Origin: Candidatus Electrothrix yaqonensis
GTDB taxonomy: Bacteria; Desulfobacterota; Desulfobulbia; Desulfobulbales; Desulfobulbaceae
Direction of reading: 5' to 3'
DNA length: 32,000 bases
Assembly (NCBI GenBank): GCA_047651235.1
Contig: CP178758.1
Coordinates: 240,001-272,000 of the forward strand
This document shows, one piece after another, positions 5,556 to 28,793 of this stretch. Positions within the stretch are counted from its first letter, which is position 1; each line of letters opens with the position of its first letter. The position numbers were made by a program, and so were the translations under genes. The notes under the pieces were generated by a model that worked only from the letters and a program-made list of their open reading frames with translations, was not told where the DNA came from and searched no databases.

Positions 5556-5560
5556 ATAAT

Positions 5561-6118
5561 ATGTCTGAGTCTGATATATCCGCACAGAATGCACACAATG
5601 CAAAAGGCGTCTTCCTGCTTTTTACCGGCAACGGCAAAGGAAAAACCACGGCAGCCCTCGGACTGACCCTGCGGATGATCGGGCATGGCGGCAGAGTCTG
5701 TTTTATTCAGTTTATCAAAGGAAGCTGGAAGTACGGTGAACTGGAAGCAGCCAGCCGGTTTCAGGATCTGCTGGACTTTCACGTCATGGGGCGCGGATTT
5801 ACCTGGAAATCGGATAATCCGGACAAGGATATTGCAGCAGCCCGTGAGGCATGGGAATTTGCCCAGGAGACAATTCAGAAAAATCAGCACCAATTGGTGG
5901 TGCTGGATGAACTGACCTATCCGATTACCTACGGGATAATCGATGAACAGGAAGTCATCAGGACAATCGTGGCCCGTGCCCCGGAGATGCATATTGCTGT
6001 TACCGGCAGAGGGGCCGGAGAACAGTTGGTGCAGGCGGCAGACCTGGTCACCGAGATGCAGGAGGTCAGGCATCCCTATACAAACGGGACACCGGCGCAG
6101 AAGGGGATTGAGTTCTGA
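5561..6118 (+). CDS. cobO: cob(I)yrinic acid a,c-diamide adenosyltransferase (CobO/BtuR type)
   Basis: 185 aa with the P-loop-like FTGNGKGKTTAALG, then VVLDELTY and a C-terminal HPY..G..AQKGIEF. Confidence 0.88.
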   Translation: MSESDISAQNAHNAKGVFLLFTGNGKGKTTAALGLTLRMIGHGGRVCFIQFIKGSWKYGELEAASRFQDLLDFHVMGRGFTWKSDNPDKDIAAAREAWEFAQETIQKNQHQLVVLDELTYPITYGIIDEQEVIRTIVARAPEMHIAVTGRGAGEQLVQAADLVTEMQEVRHPYTNGTPAQKGIEF

Positions 6119-6158
6119 TCCGGCTGGCTCGGTTCATGCGGCTTCATGCGCTGCGCCG

Positions 6159-6215
6159 AAAAAAGAAAATAGGTGCCGCCGATATCCCTGAGATCATCCT
6201 GCCGATGGCACCTAT
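6159..6215 (-). terminator. rho-independent terminator for a minus-strand transcript; the displaced original terminator of the oxidoreductase gene
   Basis: A 9-bp stem joins ATAGGTGCC (6169-6177) to GGCACCTAT (6207-6215). On the minus strand it is followed by TTTTCTTTTTT (plus-strand A-run 6159-6169). It lies just downstream, in the minus sense, of the orphaned stop codon at 6231-6233. Confidence 0.55.
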
Positions 6216-6230
6216 ACACATTGACTCATG

Positions 6231-6276
6231 TTACCCGATCTCCCGCATAACCTCCCGGATCAGGTTGATGTAGACC
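6231..6276 (-). pseudogene. orphaned original 3' end of the FAD oxidoreductase gene (encodes ...VYINLIREVMREIG*)
   Basis: The minus strand reads GTC TAC ATC AAC CTG ATC CGG GAG GTT ATG CGG GAG ATC GGG TAA. It starts in the left copy of the ISAs1 target duplication, in the frame that continues ...SRAGVY of ORF 7015..8166. Confidence 0.7.
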
Positions 6277-7033: not shown

Positions 7034-8166
7034 ATGTAGACCCCGGCCCGGCTGACATTGCCGAGAAAAAGCATACCGACAAGACGATCTCCGGCAAAAA
7101 TGAGTTTGCGGTAATTGTCTCCTGATGCCTCTGTGTAAACCGCATACTCTTCCGAATCGGCATGCAGATCCCCGGCGGAAATAATAGGCAGACTGGCTAT
7201 ATCGGTACTGTTCAGGGAAGAGAGCAGCGGCGGCACATAGGCCTCGATGCCGCTCATGTTGAACCCGGCAGTTCTGGACATATGAACGGCATTGCCCCAC
7301 AGAGCGCTGACAACGTCCTTGCCGACAACCGCATCATGGAACTGCACTATGTCACCGGCGGCGTAGACGTCTGGAACCGAAGTCCGCATTGTCCGGTCCG
7401 TGAGCACCGCCTGATCAACTGTAATCCCGGAACCGGCAAGAAAATCGATATTCGGCTGCACACCCACCATCAGGATAACCAGGTCAGCAGCAACGGTTTT
7501 TATCGAGGACAGCCGGACGCCGGTTGCCCTGCCGTCAGCAGTAAGAATTTCCTGGGCAGACTCTTTCGTCAGAATATCCATGCCGCTTTGCCGCAGCCGC
7601 CGGGTGATTCGATCGGCAATTTCCGTATCAGCGATATGCGGCAGAATATGACGGCGCTGCTCGACCACTGTAACCTGCAGTTTTGTGCGCTGCAGGGCCT
7701 CGGCCACCTTGATTCCGGCAAAGGCGCCGCCGACCACCACGGCATTTCTGCATCCTTTCAGGTACTCCCGTACCTTGAGCGCCTCATCCAGAGTGCGCAG
7801 GGTAAAAACGCCCTGACTGTCGATACCGGCAATATCAGGTAATGTGGAAGAGCTGCCCGCAGCCAGCAGCAGCCGGTCATAGTTCAGCTCCTGACCCGAC
7901 CCGAGTCCGACGGTCCGCTTCTCCGGATCAACAGCAATACACCGATCATGGTGGATATGCACCCGCTCATCATCCGAGGGTTGCTCGGTAAATAAAATTT
8001 CATCCACTGTACGGCTGTCGTCGAGCAGATAGGGGATCAGGGCGCGGTAATAAAACGGCACCGCTTCATCAGCCACTACCCGGATTTCTGCTCCCGGACT
8101 GTTGGTCCGGATCACATTCAGTGCGGTGGAGGCGGAAATGGAGCCGCCCACGATGACATATTGCAT
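7015..8166 (-). CDS. FAD/NAD(P)-dependent pyridine nucleotide-disulfide oxidoreductase; C-terminus replaced by IS-derived codons
   Basis: 383 aa with an N-terminal dinucleotide fold YVIVGGSISAST, a second Rossmann fold VVVGGAFAGIKVAEAL, and VYAAGD. The last codons (..IRAVQF*) and the stop are encoded by the ISAs1 right inverted repeat. Confidence 0.8.
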   Translation of the reverse strand: MQYVIVGGSISASTALNVIRTNSPGAEIRVVADEAVPFYYRALIPYLLDDSRTVDEILFTEQPSDDERVHIHHDRCIAVDPEKRTVGLGSGQELNYDRLLLAAGSSSTLPDIAGIDSQGVFTLRTLDEALKVREYLKGCRNAVVVGGAFAGIKVAEALQRTKLQVTVVEQRRHILPHIADTEIADRITRRLRQSGMDILTKESAQEILTADGRATGVRLSSIKTVAADLVILMVGVQPNIDFLAGSGITVDQAVLTDRTMRTSVPDVYAAGDIVQFHDAVVGKDVVSALWGNAVHMSRTAGFNMSGIEAYVPPLLSSLNSTDIASLPIISAGDLHADSEEYAVYTEASGDNYRKLIFAGDRLVGMLFLGNVSRAGVYIRAVQF

Positions 8167-8537
8167 ATTTTTCTCCTTTACGTACTGCGTCAGGTGTCAT
8201 ACTCAATTGCTGATGGTTGCTGAAATTGTAATCTTAATGGATTATTATGCGAAAATCAATCAGGCTGACAATTTTCCCGAAGCGGTATTTTTCGGCGGGT
8301 TTCCGTTCAAACAACAGCTCCGATTGCTGAATCTCCCGGCAGTACAGCCGGGGCGTCGCATCCTTTTGAGCAGTCTGATATTCATGATGAAAAACCGGGA
8401 AGTTTGTGTTCTGATAGGAGAGTGCTTATCCGTTGGCAGGCCGGGAACAGCGGTCTGCTCCTATTATCCCATCATCATTATCACACGGGGCGCGACATAA
8501 CCCTCTATAAATATGTAAAATAAATAACAGGCAAGAG

Positions 8538-9815
8538 ATGGAGAATCTTATGAACAACAACGAAATAGAACAACTCATCACCGGTATGGCTGAAAAGGGC
8601 CGAAAAGCAGCCCGCAAGCTGGCTGCCCTGCCCACGTCGGTCAAGAATGACATTCTGCTGGCTACTGCCGTTCAGCTTCAGGCGGAGCGGGAATTTATCC
8701 GCACGGAAAACGAAAAAGACCTTGCTGCAGGTCGGGAGAAAGGATTGTCCACCGCCATGCTGGATCGTCTGGAACTGAGCGACAAAGTCATTGCCTCGAT
8801 GATTCAGGGGCTGGAGGAAATCGCTGCTCTGCCGGACCCAGTGGGCGAAGTGGATGACATGAAGCGCAGGCCCAGCGGCATCACCGTGGGCCGGATGCGG
8901 GTACCGCTCGGTGTAGTAGGCATGATCTACGAATCCCGGCCAAATGTGACCATTGACGCAGCTGCCCTCTGCCTGAAGGCCGGGAACGGCGTCCTGCTGC
9001 GGGGCGGCTCCGAGGCTATCCACTCCAATCTGGCTCTGGCCAGGCTGCTGCAGAAGGTGCTGGAGGCCCATGATGTCCCGAAAGAGGCTGTGCAGGTCAT
9101 CCCGGTGACTGACCGTTACGGGGTCAATGCCATGCTGGCTCAGGAGGAGTTTGTCGATGTCGTCATCCCCAGGGGCGGCGAGGGTCTGATCCGTTTTGTC
9201 ACGGAAAATTCTAAGATTCCGGTACTCAAACATTATAAAGGCGTCTGTCACCTTTATATGGACGACAGCGGTGACATCGATACCGGCATCCGCATTGCCA
9301 TGAACGGCAAGACCCAGCGGCCTGGAGTATGTAATGCTCTGGAAGGAATGCTGGTGCATAAAGGAATTGCAGATCACTTTCTGCCTGCCGCTGCCAAGGA
9401 GCTGATCGCTGCCGGAGTAGAGCTGCGCGGCTGCGATCAGAGCTGCGCCCTGGTGCCAGAGATCGTGCCGGCGGAAGGCACGGACTGGGGTACCGAGTTT
9501 CTGGACCTGAAAATGGTCGTCCGGGTGGTGGGGGATATGGATGAGGCCATGCGCTACATCGAACAGTACGGCTCACAGCATACCGAGGTCATCGTCACCG
9601 AATCCTATGCAAACAGCCAGCGTTTTCTGCGCGAGGTAGATGCCTCGGCCGTAATGGTCAATGCCTCCAGCCGGTTCAACGACGGCGGCCAGTTCGGTCT
9701 GGGTGCGGAGATCGGCATCTCCACCACCAAGCTGCATGCCTACGGACCGATGGGGCTGGAAGAACTGACCACCAGGAAATTCGTGGTTTACGGAGAAGGG
9801 GAGGTGCGGAAGTAG
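8538..9815 (+). CDS. proA: glutamate-5-semialdehyde dehydrogenase (gamma-glutamyl phosphate reductase)
   Basis: 425 aa with PDPVGEV, GMIYESRPNVTIDAAALCLKAGNGVLLRGGSEA, CNALEGMLVH, HTEVIVTE, and NASSRFNDGGQFGLGAEIGISTTKLHAYGPMG. Confidence 0.93.
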   Translation: MENLMNNNEIEQLITGMAEKGRKAARKLAALPTSVKNDILLATAVQLQAEREFIRTENEKDLAAGREKGLSTAMLDRLELSDKVIASMIQGLEEIAALPDPVGEVDDMKRRPSGITVGRMRVPLGVVGMIYESRPNVTIDAAALCLKAGNGVLLRGGSEAIHSNLALARLLQKVLEAHDVPKEAVQVIPVTDRYGVNAMLAQEEFVDVVIPRGGEGLIRFVTENSKIPVLKHYKGVCHLYMDDSGDIDTGIRIAMNGKTQRPGVCNALEGMLVHKGIADHFLPAAAKELIAAGVELRGCDQSCALVPEIVPAEGTDWGTEFLDLKMVVRVVGDMDEAMRYIEQYGSQHTEVIVTESYANSQRFLREVDASAVMVNASSRFNDGGQFGLGAEIGISTTKLHAYGPMGLEELTTRKFVVYGEGEVRK

Positions 9816-10987: not shown

Positions 10988-11217
10988 TCAATCGCGCAGG
11001 CTGCATCCCGGATACAGTGAAACGACTGCGACCCGATCTGTTGACCAGTTATGGCCGCTCGAAATCCCTGTACAGCAGAAAGGAAAAAGCGTTTTGGGCG
11101 GTCGTAATGTATCCACAAGGCAGTCTCACCAACGCCAAGCTGCCAGCGGACCGCTTTCAGATCAAAATCGCAGCAGAGCATTCGGGCGACCTCGCACTCT
11201 GCTGCTGAAGAAAAAAA

Positions 11218-11584
11218 CGGGGCGGACTGTAAGCCGAATTTTGTTCCTGCCGAAGCAGGCCATGATCATTTGACTGGGATGCCGGTCACCCGGCACCTCG
11301 TGCAACCCACCCGGAAACCTTGGACGGGCAGTCCTCAGACGTTTCCCTATTTGGTCTTGCACCCGGCGGGGTTTACCCTGCCCTCCATGTCACCATGAAG
11401 GCGGTGAGCTCTTACCTCACCATTTCAACCTTGCCTGTGAACGGAGCGCCCGTTCCATCGGCGGTGTGTTTTCTGTGGCACTTTCCTCCGGTTACCCGAA
11501 GTTCCTGTTAGGAACCGCTGTGCCCTGTGGTGTTCGGACTTTCCTCTCCGGCATAAAGACCGGAGCGATCATGCGTCCGCCCCG
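11218..11584 (-). ncRNA. rnpB: RNase P RNA, bacterial type A
   Basis: The minus strand contains GAGGAAAGTCCGAAC, CACAGAAAACACACCGCCGATGG, GGTAAGAGCTCACC, GGTAAACCCCGCCGGGTGCAAGACCAAATAGGGA and ACAAAATTCGGCTTACAG. P1 pairs GGGGCGGAC with GTCCGCCCC, and P2 pairs CATGATC with GATCATG. A T-run follows the 3' end. The ends are approximate to within about 5 nt. Confidence 0.93.
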
Positions 11585-11825
11585 AACCTGCCCATGCTCT
11601 TCTATTTTTTCCGAAAAGTCAAACGGTTTTTTTTCGCAGAAGGCGAGAGAAGGGATGCGTTCATCAGGTACTGCTGGTTGCAGACAGGGAGAAGAGCGGA
11701 AAGGAAATCGTTATTCCAATATGTTTAATTAAAAAACAGGCGGGAATCAGTCAGGGTTTGACAACTGCAGATTTTTTCGGCGGTAGCCCTTCGAAAAGAC
11801 GAAAAGCTGCCGCCCCAAGCATCAG

Positions 11826-12257
11826 TTAGAAGAGCTCACAACTCAATGCATTCATTGATTCTTCTTTGCAGAACCTGAATAAATCAGATTCAATTTCCAT
11901 TTCATCGGTAACTCTTATTTTTATATTATTTTTACCTTTTTTGTCTTTGTCGTCAATATTGACTCTCGTTTTCCAACCGTGTTCACGTATTAACCAATTC
12001 GACGGATTAATCTTTAAACCGTCCTTCAGATAATGATGTCCGTTTTCCTCGTAGGTCATTTTTGTCAGTTGTTTTATAAAGACAGGATCAAATTCGTGGG
12101 GTTGATAAGTTAATATACAATCCACTAATGCATCGGCTTCTTTCATACAATCAGCAGAACTGGCTGGATTTGCAGTTAGTATTAATACACCTGTGCCTGC
12201 TGTTATCAATGCCTTTTTGACGAAAGACTGAAATGTCAGACAATTTTTACTCAACAT
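11826..12257 (-). CDS. hypothetical secreted protein (orphan, in an AT-rich islet)
   Basis: 143 aa. The signal-like N-terminus is ...KKALITAGTGVLILTANPASSA/DC. The mature part has 4 Cys and a Lys-rich segment and contains no motif I recognise. The gene and its flanks are visibly AT-richer than the neighbours. Confidence 0.5.
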   Translation of the reverse strand: MLSKNCLTFQSFVKKALITAGTGVLILTANPASSADCMKEADALVDCILTYQPHEFDPVFIKQLTKMTYEENGHHYLKDGLKINPSNWLIREHGWKTRVNIDDKDKKGKNNIKIRVTDEMEIESDLFRFCKEESMNALSCELF

Positions 12258-12731
12258 GTTTTCCTCCTTAGGTTGGTTAGATATAATATATATCCTTTAC
12301 ACCTCTTCTTTTAAGATGATTTATATATCAAATGACATTGAATTGCACTTGTTATTTTTTCTTTTTGCCCGGTTATAACAAAAAATAACGAAATCGTATC
12401 CCAATGCTGCTCAAATTCACTCTTCGGTCTGCGGAGCTTTACCCCTTTCAGCCGGTTCATGTTTCCCATTCCGGCTTCGGTGACGGCTGCACAGTAACAA
12501 GAAAAATTCTATAATTTTATATAAATACATAAGATGGAAATTATCTGTTTTCCGTTCTGAATTGCAGGTAAGAAGGATTACGGAGGAACTGCCGCCCCGT
12601 TCTTCTTCTTTCCTGTTGTCTTTCCGGTGCAATCTATTTATAACGGTCAGCATCACGTAGTAACATCTGTTGAACAAGCCAGTTATTGACCGGACAACTT
12701 CTGCCCGGCCCTTTATTTATATTTTTTACCA

Positions 12732-14681
12732 ATGGAGTTTATGATGTCCCTGAAATTTGATCCTGCGGCGACTGAACTGACTGCCGAAGAAATCGCAACC
12801 CTGAAGGAGATGCGAATCCGCTCTGCCCGACGCATCCTGCTGTCCACCAGCCTGGCTGCTTCCGGTCATCCGGGCGGTTCGCTGTCCTCGCTGGATATGC
12901 TGTTGGTGGCTTACGGTCTGCTCAAACATGATCCGGCCAATCCCCGCATGGCTGGACGTGACCGGATGGTGGAGTCCATCGGTCATATCTCGCCAGGCGT
13001 GTACAGCGTGCTGGCCGAGAACGGCTATTTCAGCGAAGAGGATTTTCTGATCGGCTTCCGTCGTACCGGTTCCGGTTTTCCCGGCCATGTGGAATCCATT
13101 GTGCCGGGTGTGGAATGGGATACCGGCAACTTGGGTCAGGGGTTGTCCATCGCCGTAGGCATGGCCCATGCCTTCAAGATCAAGGGCATGCAAAACCGGG
13201 TGTTCTGCCTGATGGGCGACGGTGAGCAGCAGAAAGGCCAGATCGCCGAGGCCATCCGCCATGCGGTCAAATACAAGCTGGACAACCTGACCGTGCTCAT
13301 TGACCGCAACCGCCTGCAGATCTGCGGCAGCACCGAGGATATTATGCCTCAGTGTATGCAGAAGCTGTACGGCGGCCTGGGATTCAACACGGTGGTTCTG
13401 AAAGACGGCCATGATTATCAGGCTATCTATCAGGCCATGCGGGACGCCTACCGCAATATCAGCGGGGTGCCTACTGTGCTGGTTGCGAAGACCGTCATGG
13501 GCAAGGGGATTTCCTTTATGGAGAACAAGGCCAAATACCACGGTTCACCCCTGCCGCCGGATATGCTGGCAGATGCCTTGGCTGAACTGGGCGTAGAAAA
13601 TGATTTTGCCCAATGGCAGGAGCGGCGCAAGGAGCCGGTCAGCACCAAGACCATCATGCCGCCACGGGCTGATTACCCGGAAGTACAGCCGGGTGAGCCC
13701 ATTGTCTATGCGGCTGATGAGAAGACCGACTGTCGTTCCGGCTACGGCAATGCCCTATTGGGCTTGGCTGAGGCCAATAATCAGGCAGGACAGCCCCCCA
13801 AGATCGTGGGTATATCCTGCGATCTGGAAGGTTCGGTCAAGATGGGCGGCTTCCATAAACATTCGCCGGACGCCTATTTGGAACTGGGCATTCAGGAGCA
13901 TCATGCCGCCGGTACTGCCGGGGCCATGAGCTGCGAGAACTTGGTCACCTTTTTCTCCACCTTCGGTTCCTTTGCCGTGTCCGAGGTCTACAACCAGAAC
14001 CGACTCAATGACTTCAACCACAGCAATGTCAAGGTGGTGGCTACCCATGTAGGGCTGGATGTAGGCGAGGACGGTCCGACCCATCAGTGCATTGATTACC
14101 TGGGCCTGATGAAAAACTACTTCCGTTTTTCCGTGTTCATCCCCTGCGACCCCAACCAGACCGACCGGATCATCCGCTATATCGCCTGCCAGCCGGGCAA
14201 TCATTTTGTCGGCATGGGCCGATCCAAAACCCCGACCATCACCAAGGAAGACGGCTCCGTGTTCTATGATGCCGACTACGTGTTCACACCGGGCAAAGCG
14301 GATTGGCTGCGCCAAGGCCGTGATGCCGTCATCATCACCTACGGTGCGGTGACTCCGGCCTGTATCAAGGCATGGCAGATCCTCAAGGATGCCGGGAAAT
14401 CCGTGGGCCTGCTGAACATGGCCTCGTTGCTGCCCATAGATGCAGAGGCTGTGCTTGAAGCGGCCGAGATCGGCCCGATTGTCACGGTGGAAGATCACCA
14501 TGTGGACACCGGCTTGGGGGCTTCGGTGGCCACGATTCTGCTGGATAACGGACTGGCACCGAAGATGAAGCGGCTTGGCGTGCGCCATTACGGCGGCTCC
14601 GGCAGCCCGGCTGATCTGTACAGGCAGCAGGGACTGGACGGGGAGTCTATTGCCGCGACCGTGCAGGAGCTGATCGGCTAG
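12732..14681 (+). CDS. tkt: transketolase (single polypeptide of the split TktN/TktC-type family)
   Basis: 649 aa with SGHPGGSLSSLDML, GNLGQGLSIAVGMA, the ThDP motif CLMGDGEQQKGQIAEA, QEHHAAGTAGAM, and HVGLDVGEDGPTHQCIDY. Confidence 0.88.
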   Translation: MEFMMSLKFDPAATELTAEEIATLKEMRIRSARRILLSTSLAASGHPGGSLSSLDMLLVAYGLLKHDPANPRMAGRDRMVESIGHISPGVYSVLAENGYFSEEDFLIGFRRTGSGFPGHVESIVPGVEWDTGNLGQGLSIAVGMAHAFKIKGMQNRVFCLMGDGEQQKGQIAEAIRHAVKYKLDNLTVLIDRNRLQICGSTEDIMPQCMQKLYGGLGFNTVVLKDGHDYQAIYQAMRDAYRNISGVPTVLVAKTVMGKGISFMENKAKYHGSPLPPDMLADALAELGVENDFAQWQERRKEPVSTKTIMPPRADYPEVQPGEPIVYAADEKTDCRSGYGNALLGLAEANNQAGQPPKIVGISCDLEGSVKMGGFHKHSPDAYLELGIQEHHAAGTAGAMSCENLVTFFSTFGSFAVSEVYNQNRLNDFNHSNVKVVATHVGLDVGEDGPTHQCIDYLGLMKNYFRFSVFIPCDPNQTDRIIRYIACQPGNHFVGMGRSKTPTITKEDGSVFYDADYVFTPGKADWLRQGRDAVIITYGAVTPACIKAWQILKDAGKSVGLLNMASLLPIDAEAVLEAAEIGPIVTVEDHHVDTGLGASVATILLDNGLAPKMKRLGVRHYGGSGSPADLYRQQGLDGESIAATVQELIG

Positions 14682-14693
14682 ACAGCATCCGAA

Positions 14694-14725
14694 CAGTCAG
14701 GGATGTCGGTAGGCAGCCCTGACTG
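14694..14725 (+). terminator. stem-loop downstream of tkt (possible terminator, no U-tract)
   Basis: A perfect 9-bp stem joins CAGTCAGGG (14694-14702) to CCCTGACTG (14717-14725). Confidence 0.3.
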
Positions 14726-14751
14726 CTGCAGAACCTTTCAGGAAATTGACG

Positions 14752-16482
14752 ATGCATTCAATAAGGGAACAGTTACTTGGCAGTATTTCCTCTGGATTTT
14801 TTTTAGAGGTTGCTTGTCGTGTTTATCTGGAAAACCATGATAAAAAAGAATCAGTTGGTCAGGAAGTTGCTGATCTTCATAATGCAGGAAAGATTGATGC
14901 AATAGCAGAATTCAGGAAGCTCAAGAGTTCAGATCAACAGCATGATTTTTTCATGACCCGACATGTACTGGAGCATGCCCTGCCAAGCATAGAATCCCCG
15001 GTTGCCGCCGTGATGGACTGCGTCAAGCATCTTGTAGAAGAAGCGGGAAATAATATGGCCGCTGGCACACTGATTCCCCCGTTCATCGACTTCTGTGAGG
15101 CAGATGCAGGACGACCTGACGAAGTCCTCTCTGCCGCTTTAAATGAGGTTGATGATACCTTTGACTTCATAACTCCGGCAATTACTGCCGGTTCTAACCT
15201 CCAACTGGAGCAATATGCAAACAAGGCGGTCGAGCTGTGCTCTCACGAAAATATCCTGATCCGCTCCCGAGCTGTTCATGCACTTGGCCGTATAAAATAT
15301 CACGACCGTGAGGAGCTGATTAGTAAATCCTTGCAGGCTATCCAAACGACACTTGAGCAGGATTGCGATGAATACTTGTATGCAGCTATATTGAGATCTA
15401 CTGTTGCACTGTACAAAGCAGATAACAGCACTGAAAAACACGCTATCAAACTTCTACAACATATCCTTCCGCAACAGGATGATATCGTTCTATATGAAGC
15501 AGCTCAATGTCTCTTCTCAAAACTGCCTGCCAGCATGGTTGATCTCCTGCTTAACACCTTGGCTCAAATAAACATTCAACGTATCAATATAATAAGAGAT
15601 ATAGATTTCGGCCTTTGCTCTTTGATCAAGCATGGGATGCGTGAAAAAGTTCTCTTGTTCCTTGAGAAGTTACTTGTTCAGAGAGAGCAGGAATTTTCCA
15701 TTAGGCAATTTGATACACTGAACTTGGCAATTTGTAATAACAAAGAGGGGTATCTCGATTTTCTCATCACCCGCTGGCTGCTCTCCAAGCAAGTGGCCTT
15801 AGGTCGTGCGGCTGCTGATTTACTGGAGAATACGTCAGAGTATGGTACACCTGTTGCGGTTGACCTTGACCAATTGCAGGAATTGCCCGAAGGAATTCGT
15901 GTCTTTCTGGTAAGAAAAGCCTGCGGTTGGTTCTTTCATAAGCCTATAAGTGCGACCAGCTTCATTGTGTCCTTGATTGATACTGCCTCAGGCGATGAAA
16001 TCGAAGAGATAACCGACATCTTGTTTCATCCTCTTTTGATCAACTATTCCGGCTGCGTAAAGGATTATCTTGTCAAAACAGTTGAGGAAGAACCTTCCGA
16101 AAAGGTAAAGCTTGTTATCGATACTGTTCTCGAACAGCTTAAAAACTATCATGAAAGTTTAAATTCATCAATTAGCGAACTGCAACCAACACAAGCACAA
16201 AGAGAGGTTTTTCATCGGTATCAAAGCAGATTATTTGCTGAGTCGTACAAAGTAGCTCAGGAGAATTCAATATTTAATTTGATTACAACTAAGATGTGTA
16301 TATTGTACGGAACTCGTTCTGTTTATTATATTCATCATGGCCCCGGCGACCAAAAGAGCAGGCAGGAAATGGCATTAGCAGAACACAGCCATTATTTTGA
16401 ACTCCCATCTCTCGAACGTATCGATCCGCACGGACTTGATTACACCTTGTATGTTTTTCGCGTAGAAGGATGTGACTCATGA
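14752..16482 (+). CDS. hypothetical large alpha-helical protein with HEAT/PBS-lyase-like repeat(s); first gene of the AT-rich two-gene module
   Basis: The ORF track starts at TTG 14746. ATG 14752 is preceded by AGGA about 8 nt upstream. ENILIRSRAVHALGRIKYHD matches the HEAT_PBS-type repeat pattern. The rest is helical repeat-like, with a short beta-like C-terminal region. The stop overlaps the next start (ATGA at 16479-16482). Confidence 0.7.
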   Translation: MHSIREQLLGSISSGFFLEVACRVYLENHDKKESVGQEVADLHNAGKIDAIAEFRKLKSSDQQHDFFMTRHVLEHALPSIESPVAAVMDCVKHLVEEAGNNMAAGTLIPPFIDFCEADAGRPDEVLSAALNEVDDTFDFITPAITAGSNLQLEQYANKAVELCSHENILIRSRAVHALGRIKYHDREELISKSLQAIQTTLEQDCDEYLYAAILRSTVALYKADNSTEKHAIKLLQHILPQQDDIVLYEAAQCLFSKLPASMVDLLLNTLAQINIQRINIIRDIDFGLCSLIKHGMREKVLLFLEKLLVQREQEFSIRQFDTLNLAICNNKEGYLDFLITRWLLSKQVALGRAAADLLENTSEYGTPVAVDLDQLQELPEGIRVFLVRKACGWFFHKPISATSFIVSLIDTASGDEIEEITDILFHPLLINYSGCVKDYLVKTVEEEPSEKVKLVIDTVLEQLKNYHESLNSSISELQPTQAQREVFHRYQSRLFAESYKVAQENSIFNLITTKMCILYGTRSVYYIHHGPGDQKSRQEMALAEHSHYFELPSLERIDPHGLDYTLYVFRVEGCDS

Positions 16483-18320
16483 AGCTCATTATTCGGGAAT
16501 ATCTCGCCTCGTTACGGGAAAGAAAGGAGCTGGATGCCCTGCTTCCTGATCTGCTTTCCCAAATGGGCTTAGATGTCTTTTCAAAACCGGGCATAGGCAA
16601 TCGGCAATATGGCGTAGATGTCGCTGCCTTTGGCAGTATTGACGATCAACCAGAGAAAGTTTATCTGGTTTCAATTAAGTCAGGAGACTTGGGGAGAAAG
16701 GATTGGAACAGTGGCTCGATTCAGGATCTCCAGCCCTCACTGGATGAAATCCGTGATACCTATATCCCTACACACCTGCCTGCCGAATATAAAAACAAAC
16801 CTATAGAAATAGGAGTTACGCAGTTGGTTTTATAACCCGTTGGTTTTGTTCAACTGACGGTTTAAACCTCCAACAGGAGAACCTATTGTAACAATTGAGC
16901 TTCTTGTTTTCAACTGCGTAACTCCTAAGAAATTTGCATATGCTTTGGAGGCGAACTTAAGCGTCAAATTCATCAACGAGTTTCTTTATACGAAGAAAAA
17001 AACAGCACAGATCAGATCTCTTTCAGCAGATGGGATGGAGAAAAATTAGCAGGATATATTGAAAAATTTCTTCTGCGTGAAGAACTGCTGCCAAAAAATT
17101 GCCGTCGCCTGCTCAGGAAATCCCTGGCCATGCTTGACGAACCGGATGTTTCGCACAGGCATTTTTGCGAGCTGATCAAGCTGCTGGCAGATAATGAGGG
17201 CAAGAAACCGAAAGAAATTCTGACCGCAATGAGGCAGCTCAATTTATGCTTGTGGATTCTTTATACTTGGTGTCGAGAATCGGATAATCTCGAAAGCGCC
17301 TTCCTTTCCGGCGAACGGGCAGTGTTAACGGCTTGGTTCATGGGTAAACCATTCCTTGAAAAGAAAGGCAAAATTTCAACAGCCCTGTTTGAAACATCAG
17401 GCTCCATCTTACTCCTCTACACGCAGATAGCCCATTATTTTCTGGCAAACAAAATCCTTCCTCATACAGGAAAACTGTATGCGATTTCCAGAGCAACAGC
17501 TCCATCTTGTGCTCTGGATGTCAATCTGAAACTCTTTGATCTTCTCGGTAGACTGGCTTTATCTGGGCTTTGGTTATATTGGTGGTTAAATTACTTTCCC
17601 CAGGATAAGGATGATTCGCAGGAAAAGAGAAAAGAAATCCAGCAAGGAATTGCACAATATCAGATTGGTATAAAACAGCTTATAGCAAACAATCCGATCC
17701 TGTTTACTCCATATAAGGACGACCAAGCAATAGACATAGCACTTGCAGCCTTTTTTCTATCCATTGACCAAAGAAACCACGGTAACCTTTATGAGTGGTT
17801 GAACAATATGGTTCATATAATTCATTTCCTTTTTCAGACAAACAGTACCTATCCTTGTAATCTTCATAATTACTATGAACTCTTAGATCACCCGGTACGG
17901 GAAAGGGAAGACTATCAAAAGAATGTCACAAGTGCGAGCGTTCTGTATCCCACCATTGCGGTATTCGCCGCGTTGCTCGGATTTGAAGATATCTATTCAT
18001 CCGTGCAGAAGATCAAATCCGATTTTTTAGAGCATTGCGATTTTCAGTATTGGTACCCAGATGCCAGCTCAGAGGAACATTACTACACGAATGATGCACT
18101 TCATGGTGCTGCATTTCTTGGTGTATATATCGACAAAGATCACAAGAGTTTCTTGGATGACCTATTCAACGAGTGCGAGGAGTCAGCACATTTTCATGAA
18201 TTGAGTGCGATCAAGTATGGGCACTGGCCTCTCCTCCTCCTTGCCTCCAGGCATTACCGACTGCCAATTCCTCTGTATTTTTTGAAGAATCTGAGCGGTT
18301 CAAAAGAGCAGACTGAATGA
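16479..18320 (+). pseudogene. gene for a 572-aa protein (Mrr/PD-(D/E)xK-like N-terminal domain plus a large helical C-terminal domain), interrupted by a MITE
   Basis: ORF 16479..16835 terminates inside the MITE. The same frame is open again from 16929 to 18320 (the track shows only 17130..18320). Deleting 16810..16932 (123 nt) fuses ...EYKNKPIEI to CICFGGELKRQIHQRVSLYEE... in frame. The N-terminal motif is LLPDLLSQMGLDVFSKPGIGNRQYGVDVAAFG-x12-VYLVSIKSGDL. Confidence 0.75.
16810..16927. mobile_element. 118-bp MITE, copy 1 (17-bp perfect terminal inverted repeats, 5-bp TSD AGAAA)
   Basis: TAGGAGTTACGCAGTTG (16810-16826) pairs with CAACTGCGTAACTCCTA (16911-16927). AGAAA flanks both sides (16805-16809 and 16928-16932). 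It is about 90% identical (12 mismatches by hand alignment) to the reverse complement of copy 2. Confidence 0.9.
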
Positions 18321-18386
18321 TTTCAGCTTGTATGCCCGTCTGTAAATAGACACGGAACCGGGGCCGCAATTACCTCCACCAGATGT

Positions 18387-18656
18387 TCATTGCTCAATAT
18401 TTCGGTGGCGCTTGGGATAGGAACGATAATGATGACGAGGTGGTGGAGGTACTGGCACTCTATATCTTCGATCTTTTCGATAACTCCGAGGATAGGAGTA
18501 ACGGTAAGAACGGGGTGCCAGCACAATAACTGCCGGAGCCGGGGCAGGGACGACAACTGCCGGGCTCGGCGCTGGCGACGCAGGAACGACAATGAGTTTT
18601 CTGCTTGTCTCACCAGCGGGATGGGGTATATATTTATTCCGATCTTCCTTTTTCAT
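18387..18656 (-). CDS. possible small Pro-rich / Arg-Tyr-rich low-complexity protein (very uncertain)
   Basis: The 89-aa ORF reads ...VVPASPAPSPAVVVPAPAPAVIVLAPRSYRYSYPRSYRKDRRYRVPVPPPPRHHYRSYPKRHR. It is the only sizeable ORF in a 365-nt gap. It has no clear RBS or signal peptide, and overlapping ORFs exist in other frames. Confidence 0.25.
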   Translation of the reverse strand: MKKEDRNKYIPHPAGETSRKLIVVPASPAPSPAVVVPAPAPAVIVLAPRSYRYSYPRSYRKDRRYRVPVPPPPRHHYRSYPKRHRNIEQ

Positions 18657-18684
18657 CCGCTCAGTTCACCAAAATATAAACGCA

Positions 18685-19266
18685 ATGCCGACCCGGCTTC
18701 TTCTCCTCCGTCACGGCCCGACCGCAGCACCAGCTGGATGTTTTGTCGGCAGCACGGATGTGCCCCTGTCCGGCAGCGGGTTGGCCCGGCTGGACAGTCT
18801 GATCCCGCAGCTCAGGCAAGCAGACTACTGGTACTGCAGCCCCATGCGCCGCACCCGGCAGACTCTGGAGCGGCTGCAGCAGAGCGGCTGCCCTGTGGGC
18901 AGTCCTGTCTATGATGAACGTCTGCGGGAAATTAACTTCGGCCGCTGGGAGATGAAAACCTTTGCCGAAATCAGCACAACAGATCAGGACCAGCTTGCGG
19001 CGTGGCAGCAGTACCTGGATTTTGTTTTTCCGGAAGGGGAAGCAGTACCTGCCTTTCTCAGCCGGGTCAACGACCTGCTTGCCGAATTCAGTGCAGCAGG
19101 CAGTACTGTCGCCATCGTGACCCACGGCGGGGTGATCCGTACCATGATTTGTCTGGCTCTGAGCATCTCTCCGCGCAACTATCTGCTCTTTGATGTGCAG
19201 CCAGCTTCTCTAACCATCCTTGATCTGTTTTCAGAAGGAGGCGTGCTGCGCGGCCTGAATCTCTGA
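18685..19266 (+). CDS. histidine phosphatase (PGAM) family protein, alpha-ribazole phosphatase CobC-like
   Basis: I take the start at the internal ATG 18685 of ORF 18592..19266. MPTRLLLLRHGPT carries the catalytic RHG, and CSPMRRTRQT and THGGVIR follow. Confidence 0.7.
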   Translation: MPTRLLLLRHGPTAAPAGCFVGSTDVPLSGSGLARLDSLIPQLRQADYWYCSPMRRTRQTLERLQQSGCPVGSPVYDERLREINFGRWEMKTFAEISTTDQDQLAAWQQYLDFVFPEGEAVPAFLSRVNDLLAEFSAAGSTVAIVTHGGVIRTMICLALSISPRNYLLFDVQPASLTILDLFSEGGVLRGLNL

Positions 19267-19333: not shown

Positions 19334-22300
19334 ATGAGTAATCCGCAATCCTCCGCATTCACCTCCAAGGCATGGGAGGCCAATAAACTGGAAACCGCCA
19401 GCAAGGTACAGATTCCCGAGCGGTTCAGGCTGCTGCAGGAGGTGGTGGTCCGCTATCAGGGACTGGCAGCCAAACTGGATCAGCTGCTGTACGAGATCAG
19501 TCATCCCTTCCGCAACTGGCAGTTGATCATCACGGAACTGCGGCCTTTTGTCCTGAAGAACTTTACCCATTACCGCAGACATGAACAAGGGCCAGCCTGT
19601 TTCGGCCTGTTCACCGGGATTTTTCTGGATGCGCTGCGGGATTCACGGAAAAACGGCAAGGTCATCGCCATGACGATGGAGGCCATGCTGGCCTATGCGG
19701 ACAAACTGATCTCTTCGTTGGATGCGGATGCCCTGCCCCTGTACCGGGATGAGCTGGACGCATTTTTCGACAGCCTGGCCGGGCTGGATGCAATTGATGA
19801 GACCGTGATGATGTATATGGTCCAGGGCCATCATCCCATGAAGAAAATGGCACAGCATCTGATAAAAATCGGTCGTGTTAACGAGGATGTCTTTTTCTCC
19901 TGTGCTTCGCTGGCCCGGCTGATGAACAAAATCCTCTTTCTCAACTATACCTACTGGCTGAGCGAGGAAAATCCGCAGCCCTGGTTTGAATCCCGCTGCG
20001 GTTCGTTCTGCAATGACTGCCAGGCAGGTCCGTTGCTGGAGGCCATTTCCCATGACCGGATCCGCGAACATCTTGCTGCGCTGGATCTCATTGATATTGA
20101 GGAGGATGCCTATCAGGCCCTCAGTGAGATCATGGAGCTTCCGGCTCACATCGATATTGTCCGCCTGTATCGGGAAATCCCGGCCAAGCTAACAACGGAC
20201 AGCAAGGATGAAGAGGAGGCATCTTTTGCGGAAAACCGTAAACTGTTCTTTCTTTTCCGAATCATGGAAACCTCCGGCTTGTATCTCATTCATGAGGAAA
20301 GCCTGCGGGAAATCAACCGCTCTCTGATTCAGCTCATTCGGAAGCAGAGCTTTGAGGAGATTGAGCAGTTTTTCGTCACCACCTTTCAGCTGCTCAAGGC
20401 CAATGTGCGGAAATATCCGCATACCTCGCTGCAGTGCATCCAGGTGATCGGCGGTGAGGTCTTCCGGCGGAGCAACTCCAAGTTGGTGGAGGCCTTTCTC
20501 TTCGAAGCGGTGCGCTTTGGGTTTCAGTACGCCAATGTCATGGGCGTGGACGAGGACTGGCAGCCCATCACCAACCCAGCCCATCTCGCCAATATCCGGG
20601 TCTGGCTGAACCTGATCATGCAGGAACCGAAATGGTGCTCCACCCTGTTTTCCGCCCTGATCATCAATATCCGGCTGTCCGGCACCTGTGTCAAGGATAC
20701 GGATCTGTTTCAGCGGGATATCACTGACCTGCTCAATCATCCGATCACGCCCATCTACAATCTGGCCAAGCAGTTCACCAAACTGATGCCGGTTTTTTTT
20801 AACGAGATCGGTGCGGAAGGCGAACTGCGGGATGTCTCCACCGAGCTGGATGAAATGCACAAACGGCATGACGTGCTCATCCACTTCCTGCGCAAGCAGT
20901 CCCATGTGGAATCCTCCAACCTGATTGTCGGCTTTATCCGGACGATTTTTATTTTCTGGATGACCCTGGACAAAGAACATCTCCGTCCCTTTCTGCCGCA
21001 GGAGATTCTCGGTCAGGTTGCCACGCAGGGCCTGTTTCTCGATGAACTGCACAGCCTGACAGGGCGTCTTCGGGACGAACTGGAATTTACGGCAATGGAT
21101 GATGTGCTGACTTGGGACGAAAAGGAGCGCACAGCCTGGCTTGCCCGGCAGGAGGATATTTCCGTAGGGGAACGGAAGCGCTTTGAGCTGCTGGTCAGAA
21201 TGTTTAAACTCCTGCACCATAAATACAACTTGGGGATGCAGGAACTGCGGCATCAGCTGCAGCAGGCTGCCCAGTCCGGCTTTCCGGAGATGGAAAATCT
21301 GCTGGAGATCCTAGAAAAAGGCGACACCTATACCTGTCTGGATGCCCTGCTGACCCATCTGGAGCAGCTGAAAGACATTATTCTGAGCAAAGAAACATTC
21401 GAACCCAAGGAAGAGATTTATTACAAACGCCATATTGCGGTGGATATCCCCTCGGTTTACGGCCGGTATTCCGAACGGAAGTTCGATGCCCTCGGTCTGA
21501 CCTTCCGCCTAGAGAATCTGGCGAATATCTACATCGAGCGGCTGACCCAGTCCATCAATCTGGGCTTTATCACCCAGGCCACCTTTATCCGGATTGCCCG
21601 CTGCCTGACCCTGTTTCTCCGGGCGCTCAAAGTGGACGGCATCAGCAGCCGCCGGCTGGATACCTACACCAGTCTGCTGAGTTCCTCCATCACCATGAAG
21701 CGGTTCACCTATACCCAGCATCTGGATATTGTCCGCGGCCTGTCCGAGGGGGTCAAGGACGTCATCTATGCCTATTACACCAATGTCCATCAGACCAATC
21801 TGTCCATTGTCATTCCGCAGATCGGTCAGGAAAATCTGCTGACCAAGTACCGTTCCCTCTGGGATGACGACGATATGCCCTCCACGGTGCATCGTCTTTC
21901 CGAGTCATTTTTCCGGGATCTTATCGCCACCACTTTCGGGCTCCAGCATCTGGACAACTTCATCACCCGGATTATCCATACCCTGGAAGCGCAGAAGGAT
22001 ATTCTGGATGAAAAGACCATTGATCTGCTGATGACCTATAATCCGGACAAGACAATTTCCTCGCTGTACAACGAGAATCTGCGTACCCACAACCTGATCC
22101 ATCTGGGCAACAAAGGCTTTAATCTGATGATGCTGGCCAATGACGGCAAGCCGGTGCCGCCCGCTTTTATCATTACCACGGAAATCTTCCGCTGCTGGCA
22201 GGCAGTGCAGAGCTTCAAGCGGGCCAGGGACGAATTTATGCAGCGGGTCCGGGCTGCCATCACCGGCCTTGAGGAACAAACTGGCCGCAGCTTCGGAGCG

Positions 22301-23587
22301 CCCAATACTCCGCTGCTCCTCTCGGTGCGCTCCGGCTCTGCCATCTCCATGCCCGGCATGATGACCACCATCCATAATGTGGGCCTGAATGAGGATCTGC
22401 TGCAGGATCTGGTGAGCAATCATCCAGAGCAGAAGTATTTTCTCTGGGACAACTACCGCCGTTTTCTCCAGTCCTGGGCCATGGCCGGGGGGATGGAACG
22501 CGAAGAATTCCAGGAACTGATGAATGCCCATAAACAACGCTACAAGATCCGTTTGAAACGGGAGTTCACCCCGGACCAGATGCGGGAGTTGGCCCTAGAA
22601 TACCAGAGCGCTTTGCGCAGACGCGGCTGCAGCGCCCCGGAAGATCCGTGGCTCCAGCTTGTCGGGGCCGTGGAAATGGTGCTGGAGTCCTGGAACACCA
22701 TGAAGGCCAAGCAGTACCGGCATCTCATGGATGTCTCCGACGACTGGGGCACTGCCGTGATTGTCCAGTCCATGGCCTACGGCAACCTGAGTGCGCAGGC
22801 GGGCAGCGGGGTGCTCTTTACCGCCCATCCCTACCGCAAGGTCCGCCGGGTGGCCCTGTGGGGCGACTATGCTGCTGGAGATCAGGGCGAAGATATTGTT
22901 TCCGGTCTGGTGAACAGCTATCCTGTTTCCGTGGAGCAGGCCGAGCTTGACGGCCGTCCTGTGGAGCGGACTTTGGAACGGAAATTTCCGGCCATTTACC
23001 AGGGCCTGCTCCAAATCGCCCGTGACCTGGTCTATACCAAGGAGTGGAATCCCCAGGAAATCGAGTTCACCTTTGAAGGGCCGGATCAGGAGGATCTGTA
23101 TATCCTCCAGACCCGTGACATGATTACCATTAAGAAAAAAGAGCATTTCCAGGTCTTTGAGGAGTCCGATATTCTGCAGGAAAATATCCTCGGCAAAGGC
23201 ATCGGCGTGAGCGGCTCGGCTCTGTCCGGTTTGGCTGTGTTTACGGATGAGAATATCCGGCAGCTCAGGCAGGAACAGCCGCATGTGCCGCTGATCCTGA
23301 TCCGGCAGGACACGGTCCCAGAAGACATCCGGGAAATCTCCATGACCGACGGCCTGCTCACCGCGCGCGGCGGCCAGACCTCTCATGCCTCAGTGGTGGC
23401 TACCCGGCTGGAAAAAACCTGTGTGGTGGGCTGCCGGGATCTGCAGGTCGTGGAAACCGGGGAATATGCCCGGATAAACGGGTTCAGAATCGGCTTCGGC
23501 GACCCGATCTCCATTGACGGCCGCAGCGGCCTGCTGCTGAAAGGGGTGCATAAGGTACGGGAGGAGGTGCATATTCTGCCGCTGTAG
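19334..23587 (+). CDS. 1417-aa protein: about 900-aa N-terminal region of unknown function fused to PPDK/PEP-synthase-type ATP-grasp and phosphohistidine swivel domains, with no PEP/pyruvate TIM-barrel domain
   Basis: PPDK-like motifs begin near nt 22090: LIHLGNKGFNLMMLANDGKPVPPAFIITTEIF, LLSVRSGSAISMPGMMTTIHNVGLN, GTAVIVQSMAYGN, GDYAAGDQGEDIVSG, and IEFTFE..LYILQTRDM. The swivel domain is GGQTSHASVVATRLEKTCVVGC (His codon 23384-23386). The stop comes about 65 aa later. Confidence 0.85.
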   Translation: MSNPQSSAFTSKAWEANKLETASKVQIPERFRLLQEVVVRYQGLAAKLDQLLYEISHPFRNWQLIITELRPFVLKNFTHYRRHEQGPACFGLFTGIFLDALRDSRKNGKVIAMTMEAMLAYADKLISSLDADALPLYRDELDAFFDSLAGLDAIDETVMMYMVQGHHPMKKMAQHLIKIGRVNEDVFFSCASLARLMNKILFLNYTYWLSEENPQPWFESRCGSFCNDCQAGPLLEAISHDRIREHLAALDLIDIEEDAYQALSEIMELPAHIDIVRLYREIPAKLTTDSKDEEEASFAENRKLFFLFRIMETSGLYLIHEESLREINRSLIQLIRKQSFEEIEQFFVTTFQLLKANVRKYPHTSLQCIQVIGGEVFRRSNSKLVEAFLFEAVRFGFQYANVMGVDEDWQPITNPAHLANIRVWLNLIMQEPKWCSTLFSALIINIRLSGTCVKDTDLFQRDITDLLNHPITPIYNLAKQFTKLMPVFFNEIGAEGELRDVSTELDEMHKRHDVLIHFLRKQSHVESSNLIVGFIRTIFIFWMTLDKEHLRPFLPQEILGQVATQGLFLDELHSLTGRLRDELEFTAMDDVLTWDEKERTAWLARQEDISVGERKRFELLVRMFKLLHHKYNLGMQELRHQLQQAAQSGFPEMENLLEILEKGDTYTCLDALLTHLEQLKDIILSKETFEPKEEIYYKRHIAVDIPSVYGRYSERKFDALGLTFRLENLANIYIERLTQSINLGFITQATFIRIARCLTLFLRALKVDGISSRRLDTYTSLLSSSITMKRFTYTQHLDIVRGLSEGVKDVIYAYYTNVHQTNLSIVIPQIGQENLLTKYRSLWDDDDMPSTVHRLSESFFRDLIATTFGLQHLDNFITRIIHTLEAQKDILDEKTIDLLMTYNPDKTISSLYNENLRTHNLIHLGNKGFNLMMLANDGKPVPPAFIITTEIFRCWQAVQSFKRARDEFMQRVRAAITGLEEQTGRSFGAPNTPLLLSVRSGSAISMPGMMTTIHNVGLNEDLLQDLVSNHPEQKYFLWDNYRRFLQSWAMAGGMEREEFQELMNAHKQRYKIRLKREFTPDQMRELALEYQSALRRRGCSAPEDPWLQLVGAVEMVLESWNTMKAKQYRHLMDVSDDWGTAVIVQSMAYGNLSAQAGSGVLFTAHPYRKVRRVALWGDYAAGDQGEDIVSGLVNSYPVSVEQAELDGRPVERTLERKFPAIYQGLLQIARDLVYTKEWNPQEIEFTFEGPDQEDLYILQTRDMITIKKKEHFQVFEESDILQENILGKGIGVSGSALSGLAVFTDENIRQLRQEQPHVPLILIRQDTVPEDIREISMTDGLLTARGGQTSHASVVATRLEKTCVVGCRDLQVVETGEYARINGFRIGFGDPISIDGRSGLLLKGVHKVREEVHILPL

Positions 23588-24346
23588 GAGCGGGGAAAAA
23601 CGGGCGTATTTTGCCGGAGCAGGTGCCGCGCCTGTTTATAAATCTTCGTGAGATTGGGGATTACCTGTATGGTACAGGGAAACTTTAAGCAGATGGTAGC
23701 TGGGGAGATAAGGGGATGGGAGGATGAGTTGAGCGGTCGTTCATTTCTTGTAGATCGAGAGGGTTTGCTATTTTTGTTTGTTGGTGAATTAGCTGTAAAC
23801 ATTGAAAAGATAACCATCACAACAAAGCCGCCAAAGATCAGCACTAAACACCCTGAGCATCCCTTTAATGAGTTGCGATCAACCTTATCCTTGTTTTCTT
23901 GTTTTGGTTGCTCTTCCTTTAAAGGCTCTCCGCAATGAGGACAGCTCTCAGCATTTCTTGAAATTTCTTTTTTGCATACAGGACAGTTGATAATATTCGC
24001 CTTTCTTTCTTCTTCTTGCTGTTTTTTCCTCCTTATTTCCTCTTTTTTTCGTGCCTCTTTCCTTCTTTTCTCTTCGTCCCTCTTGCGAGACATTATTGTT
24101 TTGTATTTATTGAATATAACGCCACAACTTGGACATTCTCATCCAATTGTCGTCCCGCTAAAGGGTGTTTGCATTTAGGACATGTACGGGTTACTTTGGA
24201 TGGAGAGCTTTTAGAGGGAGATGCTACAGGCTTTAAAGGGATTGATTTTCCACATGCTTTTTACATTTTGCTTGCTTGGTTCCCGATGGAATTTTGCTTT
24301 GGTTAAGCTTGTATCTTTTTTTACAAGTCGAACACTCTATAATCAT
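23383..24346 (-). pseudogene. multi-zinc-ribbon membrane protein gene broken by two frameshifts (or by assembly indels)
   Basis: Three minus-strand frames concatenate into one protein. The first is MIIECSTCKKRYKLNQSKIPSGTKQAKCKK (MJ0042-type finger, ATG at 24346). The second is ACGKSIPLKPVASPSKSSPSKVTRTCPKCKHPLAGRQLDE. The third is ECPSCGVIFNKYKTIMSRKRDEEKRRK...NCPVCKKEISRNAESCPHCGEPL...a TM helix LVLIFGGFVVMVIFSMF. The listed 236-aa ORF (23383..24093) is only the last segment. Its low-complexity tail runs antisense into the 3' end of the 1417-aa gene. Confidence 0.6.
23620..23640 (+). terminator. possible weak intrinsic terminator of the 1417-aa gene
   Basis: The short GC hairpin CAGGTGCCGCGCCTG (23620-23634) is followed by TTTATAAAT. 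Confidence 0.3.
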
Positions 24347-24483
24347 CTTTGTTATCTCGTCACTAATACCATCTCATTTATGAATCATGCCCCTTTGCTT
24401 TGATTTTTACGAAGGTAATAGCAATAAAATCTATTGTCAACAGAGGTCTGCATAAATTCAGAAGAGACGCGGTTCAGCAAGGC

Positions 24484-24521
24484 AAAAAAGTACCCCCGCC
24501 GCAATACTGCGACAGGGGTAC
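24484..24521 (-). terminator. rho-independent terminator of the minus-strand nifB-like/Nif11 operon
   Basis: The stem GTACCCC (24490-24496) / GGGGTAC (24515-24521) is followed on the minus strand by TTTTTT (plus-strand A-run 24484-24489). It lies about 30 nt after the Nif11 gene stop. Confidence 0.6.
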
Positions 24522-28733: not shown

Positions 28734-28793
28734 AGCTGCAAACCGTCAGTTGAACAAAATCAACGGGTTGTAAATCCAACTGCGTAACTCCTA
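28676..28793. mobile_element. 118-bp MITE, copy 2 (inverted relative to copy 1; 5-bp TSD TCTAA)
   Basis: It has the same 17-bp termini, TAGGAGTTACGCAGTTG (28676-28692) and CAACTGCGTAACTCCTA (28777-28793). TCTAA flanks both sides (28671-28675 and 28794-28798). Confidence 0.9.

Follow-up and report, generated by a model that had tools for sequence, protein, structure and literature searches.

Olokun is a defence system credited to Millman et al. 2022 (Cell Host Microbe 30:1556; ref. 7 in PMC10121019) and it also appears in PMC13223576, in both cases among validated defence systems. The Pseudomonas representative, PfOlokun, forms a 2:2 OloA-OloB complex of ~278 kDa (Ragucci et al. 2025, bioRxiv 10.1101/2025.07.10.664194). 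In this preprint, OloA is described as adaptin-like and OloB as a PD-(D/E)XK nuclease, with the two nuclease domains of the complex modelled side by side. In vitro, PfOlokun degrades the DNA of T7, SECphi17 and SPO1, nicks plasmid and spares Escherichia coli DNA; this activity requires ~1 µM protein, and mutations in the active site disrupt the complex (bioRxiv 10.1101/2025.07.10.664194). Here, we analyze a stretch of 32,000 nucleotides from the cable bacterium Candidatus (Ca.) Electrothrix yaqonensis (contig CP178758.1, positions 240,001 to 272,000), hereafter called the window and numbered from its first letter. We are highly confident that its positions 14752-18320 correspond to an Olokun anti-phage operon, oloA-oloB, which was acquired horizontally, was disrupted by a miniature inverted-repeat transposable element (MITE) and is most likely inactive. 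The Olokun family, its 2:2 complex, its architecture and its cleavage of phage DNA are already published and nothing in this locus is new in kind.

The identification relies on the curated profiles of PADLOC. OloA matches profile PDLC03925 with E=3.4e-102 and 341.6 bits (residues 16-577 against positions 20-595 of 596). OloB matches PDLC03926 with E=1.3e-194 and 646.4 bits (residues 1-563 against positions 1-552 of 556), a value computed on the reconstructed protein from which the MITE had been removed and not on the split open reading frames (ORFs). Since both matches extend over the full length of the proteins, the pair is the named Olokun system. The two genes are moreover adjacent and co-oriented, with oloA upstream and encoding an adaptin/HEAT-like protein. 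They comprise ~575 codons each and are coupled by a 4-nt ATGA overlap at 16479-16482, as was already recognized in a preliminary description made from the letters of the sequence and their translations. Translation of oloA would start at TTG 14746 or, more likely, at ATG 14752, which is preceded 7 nt upstream by AGGAA. The preliminary description had left the pair unnamed because neither family has a model in Pfam or NCBIfam: scanning both proteins against these collections returned no family-level match for OloA or OloB. The PADLOC search that it had recommended for this locus assigned both proteins to Olokun. The window belongs to Ca. Electrothrix sp. YB6: OloA and the NCBI protein ACL93V_01155 of this bacterium are 100% identical, and the C-terminal 396-aa ORF of oloB (17130-18320) is 100% identical to ACL93V_01165 (P0006), the sole part of the oloB 3' region annotated by NCBI. 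Three gene calls labelled 'hypothetical' in Ca. Electrothrix sp. YB6 should be read as a single Olokun operon with a MITE-disrupted oloB; the two just cited are confirmed by identity and the third is the 118-aa 5' fragment located between them.

Table 1. Coordinates of the Olokun operon, its disrupting element and its borders in the window
Feature	Coordinates	Strand	Description
Upstream junction of the low-GC island	14682..14751	+	hairpin CAGTCAGGG...CCCTGACTG 3' of the tkt stop; oloA ribosome-binding site
oloA	14752..16482	+	576 aa; intact gene; TTG at 14746 is an alternative start
oloB 5' fragment	16479..16809	+	codons 1-110 plus one base; α1-2, β1-3, including E14, D47 and S65-x-K67
MITE	16810..16927	.	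118 bp; 17/17 complementary inverted repeat; at oloB codon 110/111
Target-site duplication copy AGAAA	16928..16932	.	partner copy at 16805-16809; read directly from the sequence
oloB 3' part	16933..18320	+	codons 111-572; rest of the nuclease domain (β4, β5) and ~400-aa helical domain
Downstream junction	18321..18591	.	host-level GC regained at ~18500

The element interrupting oloB has the hallmarks of a MITE. It is short and non-coding, ends in perfect 17-nt terminal inverted repeats (TIRs; TAGGAGTTACGCAGTTG) and is bordered by a direct AGAAA target-site duplication (TSD). A second copy is located at 28676-28793, in reverse orientation, with ~88% identity and its own 5-bp duplication, TCTAA; the TIR occurs four times in the 32-kb window when 0.04 occurrences are expected by chance. 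These two copies define a MITE family with a 17-nt TIR and a 5-bp TSD, active in cable-bacterial genomes. The insertion lies inside the predicted strand β4 (residues 109-115) of the nuclease core and introduces an in-frame stop at 16833-16835, so that oloB as encoded ends at 16835 within the MITE and its frame resumes in the 17130-18320 ORF. The gene is in this way split into ORFs of 118 and 396 aa. Removal of the 123 nt between 16810 and 16932 produces an uninterrupted ORF of 572 codons. The preliminary description had both recognized the MITE and indicated this very deletion, and its reconstruction turned out to be exactly right. The reconstructed OloB aligns end to end with its closest intact homologue, from a metagenome (P0002, 85% identity), and is 84-85% identical to the intact OloB of Ca. 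E. scaldis (P0001). It retains all 84 columns that are invariant in an alignment of 48 sequences (the window protein and 47 homologues), its only notable departure being V64 at a position where F is nearly invariant, and the 3' part of the gene (16933-18320) contains no more frameshifts or stops. Given the perfect TIRs, the intact TSD and the absence of any further damage to oloB, the insertion looks recent. Neither OloB fragment possesses the whole nuclease domain and the system is therefore most likely inactive: judging from the reading frames, full-length OloB can no longer be made and this copy of Olokun is most likely dead.

One could argue that the locus remains functional despite the MITE, if the element excises precisely in some cells of the population or if the 118-aa and 396-aa fragments cooperate with each other or with OloA. 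Such a scenario would be compatible with the absence of further decay in oloA and in the rest of oloB, with the conservation of every invariant column, with the length of the insertion, which is a multiple of 3, and with the ATG at 17130 that opens the NCBI-annotated 396-aa ORF. However, the MITE brings an in-frame stop, the break within β4 deprives both fragments of a complete catalytic domain and the ORF starting at 17130 lacks residues 1-176, which make up the whole nuclease domain. A recent insertion accounts just as well for the absence of decay. We consider persistent function to be very unlikely and retain the reading of a recently inactivated operon.

Two side observations concern the MITE family itself. 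The second copy in the window sits at the 3' end of a FlpD/MvhD-like gene (28170-28733; Pfam FlpD, E=2.5e-23) and just upstream of an ORF with a Fe-S_biosyn domain (28858-29334). In another cable-bacterial genus, Ca. Electronema sp. JC (L008 10025-10160, NZ_JBLWEM020000034.1) carries the same 19-nt MITE terminus (TAGGAGTTACGCAGTTGGT); an ORF (MNKSKVSEYDYINFLIGTQRVYSSAEAERV...) begins ~35 nt further and continues to the limit of the retrieved sequence. This ORF-bearing element may be the autonomous insertion sequence from which the MITE derives.

The oloB gene is also broken in a second species. In Ca. E. communis (L163 8001-11796, CP130629.1), an independent insertion of ~2.1 kb, which encodes a 620-aa DDE_Tnp_1 transposase, has split the gene at codon 428; residues 1-428 are encoded at 8001-9281 and the remainder (428-572) at 11362-11796. 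Random insertion is a sufficient explanation for the disruption of oloB, because two MITE copies are found in 32 kb and transposases reside near the other Electrothrix copies; the link between the MITE and a toxic gene drawn in the preliminary description is a conjecture. It is unlikely, in our opinion, that the knock-outs of oloB in two species where oloA stays intact reflect selection against the OloB nuclease, and we see as little probability, as a separate matter, in OloB being a distinct PD-(D/E)xK variant. If the former were true, the cause might be, for example, self-toxicity of OloB in long multicellular filaments rather than general transposon load. If the latter were true, E14, E17 or D19 would stand in for the missing acid, an arrangement worth structural definition. 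Beside these cases, the OloA homologue of Ca. E. aarhusensis (P0131) is 413 aa long and covers 70% of the query; it may be one more case of a truncated Olokun among cable bacteria.

The foreign origin of the operon is apparent in its composition. The GC content of oloA (0.430) and oloB (0.431) differs from that of the transketolase gene tkt (0.581), of the histidine phosphatase gene (0.567) and of the whole window (0.513). It drops sharply at ~14700 and recovers at ~18500, delimiting an island of ~3.7 kb at 43% GC. The preliminary description had judged by eye that the two genes were AT-richer than their tkt and phosphatase neighbours and had proposed a horizontally acquired two-gene defence module; the computed values of 43% against 57-58% confirm the former, and together with the PADLOC Olokun matches they support the latter. 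No direct or inverted repeats of at least 9 nt, of the att type, are common to both borders of the island. In related Desulfobulbaceae and further Desulfobacterota, 80 tkt loci were compared; none has oloAB next to tkt, and none has the phosphatase or the PPDK-like gene in this position either. In the six closest genomes, synteny with the window is restricted to tkt itself and extends to neither side, hence no exact empty site can be demonstrated. In Ca. E. scaldis and Ca. E. communis, Olokun occupies unrelated neighbourhoods, different from that of the window; in Ca. E. communis, a MNT/HepT toxin-antitoxin pair lies directly upstream of oloA (5414-6249) and transposases are found nearby.

Homologues of OloB are numerous (>1,700 at E<=1e-3) and are encountered in Electrothrix, Beggiatoa, Campylobacterota, Vibrio, Aeromonas, Shewanella, Alteromonas, Desulfobacter and many metagenomes. 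Olokun is widespread in cable bacteria as well as in other sediment and marine lineages. We retrieved 80 metagenomic oloB loci, 62 of which extended 1700 nt or more upstream of oloB and were informative for the presence of oloA. An oloA homologue abuts or overlaps oloB immediately upstream in all 62, and the same gene order is found in Ca. E. communis and in Ca. E. scaldis, where proteins of 583 aa and 566 aa are encoded with a 4-nt overlap. Co-occurrence of the two genes in other genomes, which the preliminary description had suggested verifying, is thus established for these 62 loci and for two more Electrothrix genomes. The two subunits do not evolve at the same pace: over the same loci (L083-L162), mean identity to the window proteins amounts to 35.7% for OloA versus 52.1% for OloB, and the corresponding values for Ca. 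E. scaldis are 60% versus 84%. On one metagenomic contig, they are 79% and 82%. The faster divergence of OloA is a hint that modules are shuffled or that the solenoid subunit evolves in an arms race.

Could the pair constitute a housekeeping or mobile-element maintenance module instead, such as a scaffolded DNA-repair nuclease? It is flanked by housekeeping genes, for transketolase and histidine phosphatase, and no other defence genes adjoin oloAB in the 32-kb window, two facts that would suit this idea. It is contradicted by the foreign composition of the genes, by the finding that 80 relatives lack the pair near tkt and by their variable location among Electrothrix species, with a toxin-antitoxin pair and transposases beside the Ca. 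E. communis copy. Their knock-out by mobile elements is tolerated in two species, and the scattered distribution of homologues among Vibrio, Aeromonas, Shewanella, Beggiatoa and Campylobacterota is the one expected for accessory genes. Since defence is in addition published for the family (bioRxiv 10.1101/2025.07.10.664194), we find a housekeeping role extremely improbable and keep to a horizontally acquired Olokun operon. Least credible of all, and refuted by the PADLOC profiles, is the undescribed conflict or defence system initially proposed in the preliminary description: despite the lack of a Pfam or NCBIfam family name for either protein and the 'hypothetical protein' annotation of all their database homologues, both match curated PADLOC families end to end (OloA at 1e-102, OloB at 1e-194), and Olokun figures among the validated systems (Millman et al. 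2022; PMC10121019; PMC13223576) as one whose architecture and biochemistry are on record (bioRxiv 10.1101/2025.07.10.664194).

The structural predictions clarify the nature of the two proteins. The AlphaFold2 (AF2) model of OloA, built with 28 homologues (mean predicted local distance difference test, pLDDT, 82.9), consists of ~30 helices arranged in a solenoid up to about residue 500, followed at the C-terminus by a small three-stranded β region of low confidence. Foldseek comparison of this model with the PDB yielded 24 matches at E<=1e-3, all of them to ARM/HEAT proteins: designed armadillo proteins, PP2A A-alpha, importin-alpha, the AP2 core and transportin. Pfam HEAT_2 is detected in 11/28 members of the OloA family and Adaptin_N in 2/28. 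In the window protein, the HEAT-like motif picked out in the preliminary description falls within a sub-threshold HEAT_2 match at residues 157-214 (E=4e-4, 21 bits for a cutoff of 27.7 bits). By its predicted structure, OloA is an ARM/HEAT, adaptin-like α-solenoid, in agreement with the HEAT-type helical repeat protein foreseen for the first gene. A regular-expression search detected neither Walker A nor Walker B motifs in OloA or OloB.

The AF2 model of OloB (48 sequences, pLDDT 87.5, predicted template modelling score 0.82) comprises an N-terminal α/β domain and, after residue 156, ~400 residues that are helical. Within residues 1-156, helices are predicted at 2-15, 18-28, 84-99, 121-134 and 146-156 and strands at 32-35, 48-52, 60-67, 109-115 and 139-144. 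The resulting α-α-β-β-β-α-β-α-β order holds the α-β-β-β-α-β core of PD-(D/E)xK enzymes, with D47 at the start of β2 and K67 at the end of β3; the GVD/SIK motif highlighted in the preliminary description sits at the corresponding position of this core. In 80 further OloB sequences (46-64% identity), E14, R15, E17, D19, D47 and K67 never vary, position 65 is occupied by S in 75, T in four and A in one, and the first 50 residues form the most conserved block. The catalytic site would be of the D...(S/T)xK type, and the second acid is probably supplied by the E14/E17/D19 cluster. These candidate catalytic residues taken from the alignment, E14, E17, D19, D47 and K67, could guide mutagenesis in the systems under study. 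What had been announced as an Mrr-type PD-(D/E)xK N-terminus is accordingly upheld as a PD-(D/E)xK-like topology with invariant D47 and K67. The 'Mrr-type' label itself was rejected: it finds no profile support (Pfam, 48 sequences, E<=1), Mrr_cat included, and position 65 is S/T/A and not D/E. Comparison of OloB with the PDB using Foldseek ranked the restriction enzyme FokI as the sole nuclease among the matches (1fok_A with probability 0.99 over 160 columns, 2fok_A with 0.96; E=0.4-0.8 over 140-160 columns), these matches being weak (E>0.1). The BFVD search produced weak domain-size matches, including one phage 'restriction endonuclease' (E>0.1).

Several points weigh against the reading of this locus as a nuclease-based anti-phage operon that has been silenced. 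Foldseek reports no match of OloB at E<=1e-3 in either PDB or BFVD. Alignment with hhalign of the OloB N-terminal profile to the FokI cleavage domain, the latter being confirmed as the 1FOK/2FOK sequence, gives a probability of 0.3% and no sequence-level link; the OloB alignment profile retrieves 0 matches at E<=10 among all PDB sequences. Pfam at E<=1 over the 48 OloB sequences returns only noise, with no nuclease family and no Mrr_cat. The canonical acid of the (D/E)xK signature is replaced at position 65 by Ser, Thr or Ala, and the predicted geometry of the active site would be non-canonical. Our own searches are consequently only suggestive of a nuclease fold in OloB, and its assignment rests mainly on the literature (bioRxiv 10.1101/2025.07.10.664194). 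Even there, the wording differs from our model: the preprint mentions an 'N-terminal helical domain' of OloB (bioRxiv 10.1101/2025.07.10.664194), contrary to the AF2 model, which places the α/β domain at the N-terminus and the large helical domain at the C-terminus. Phage defence by a cable-bacterial Olokun is read from published homologues, and the inactivity of the disrupted copy, most likely as it appears, is what we infer from its broken frame.

Taken together with the Pseudomonas literature, these data allow us to propose how an intact copy would operate. The OloA solenoid and the OloB nuclease would assemble into a 2:2 complex degrading certain phage genomic DNAs and not host DNA. Within this complex, the two N-terminal nuclease domains of OloB, standing side by side, would cut both strands in the manner of FokI. 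Catalysis would involve D47, K67 and an acid from the E14/E17/D19 cluster, situated at or just after the end of helix α1. OloA, which diverges faster, would probably be the recognition or regulatory scaffold. Under this proposal, the mode of action of Olokun would most likely be that of a scaffolded, dimeric, FokI-like nuclease selectively destroying phage DNA.

Other features of the window deserve a brief mention. At the upstream border of the island, the hairpin listed in Table 1 has a perfect 9-bp stem, occupies positions 14696-14727 directly 3' of the tkt stop and is devoid of a T-run. A scan of 14500-18700 for promoters and terminators found 8 candidate promoters versus a shuffled expectation of 7.1, indicating no excess of promoters. 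Between oloB and the phosphatase gene, a gap of 270 bp contains an 89-aa ORF with abundant Pro, Arg and Tyr residues (18387-18656, minus strand), a candidate gene only. Further downstream, a 1417-aa protein (19334-23587, plus strand) possesses PPDK_N (966-1206) and PEP-utilizers (1321-1384) domains at its C-terminal end only, its first ~960 residues having no Pfam match. A complete bacterial RNase P RNA of class A is encoded at 11214-11584 on the minus strand (Rfam RF00010, 308 bits). Three other stretches have a low GC content (0.38-0.39), similar to that of the Olokun island, at 1001-1500, 11826-12500 and 24001-24500. On the minus strand, a 143-aa ORF at 11826-12257 displays a signal-peptide-like N-terminus and no Pfam match.

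The comparison with known systems situates OloB and its partner with respect to three groups of nucleases. The Mrr family (Mrr_cat PF04471) shares with OloB the PD-(D/E)xK layout, with an Asp at the start of β2 and an xK at the end of β3, and OloB also presents a Glu in helix α1 as in Hjc/Mrr-type cores; lacking a Mrr_cat match and the second acidic residue, it is nevertheless not a member. The FokI cleavage domain (1FOK/2FOK) is the best match of the OloB N-terminal domain among solved structures, which we take as a working analogy and not as family membership. As proposed here for OloB, FokI has PD-(D/E)xK-type domains that must pair to cut both strands. Its residues are D450/D467/K469, whereas OloB shows Ser/Thr/Ala at the second acidic position and carries invariant acids near helix α1 instead; unlike FokI, OloB has no FokI-like DNA-recognition domain and relies on a separate solenoid partner. 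Nuclease-NTPase systems such as Gabija, Hachiman, AbpAB and others resemble Olokun in combining a nuclease effector with a large accessory subunit in a defined complex, and it is within a panel of such systems that Ragucci et al. analyzed Olokun (bioRxiv 10.1101/2025.07.10.664194). Olokun differs from them by the lack of Walker A/B motifs in OloA and OloB and by a partner that is a HEAT/ARM scaffold and not an NTPase; in line with this, OloA is absent from the accessory proteins listed as P-loop homologues (bioRxiv 10.1101/2025.07.10.664194). With respect to the characterized Olokun, the locus described here is distinguished by its cable-bacterial host (Desulfobulbaceae) and by an oloB gene that was cut by a MITE and is probably a pseudogene. 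It shares with the characterized Olokun the two families, the gene order and tight coupling, an adaptin/HEAT-like OloA and an OloB of predicted PD-(D/E)XK-type topology.

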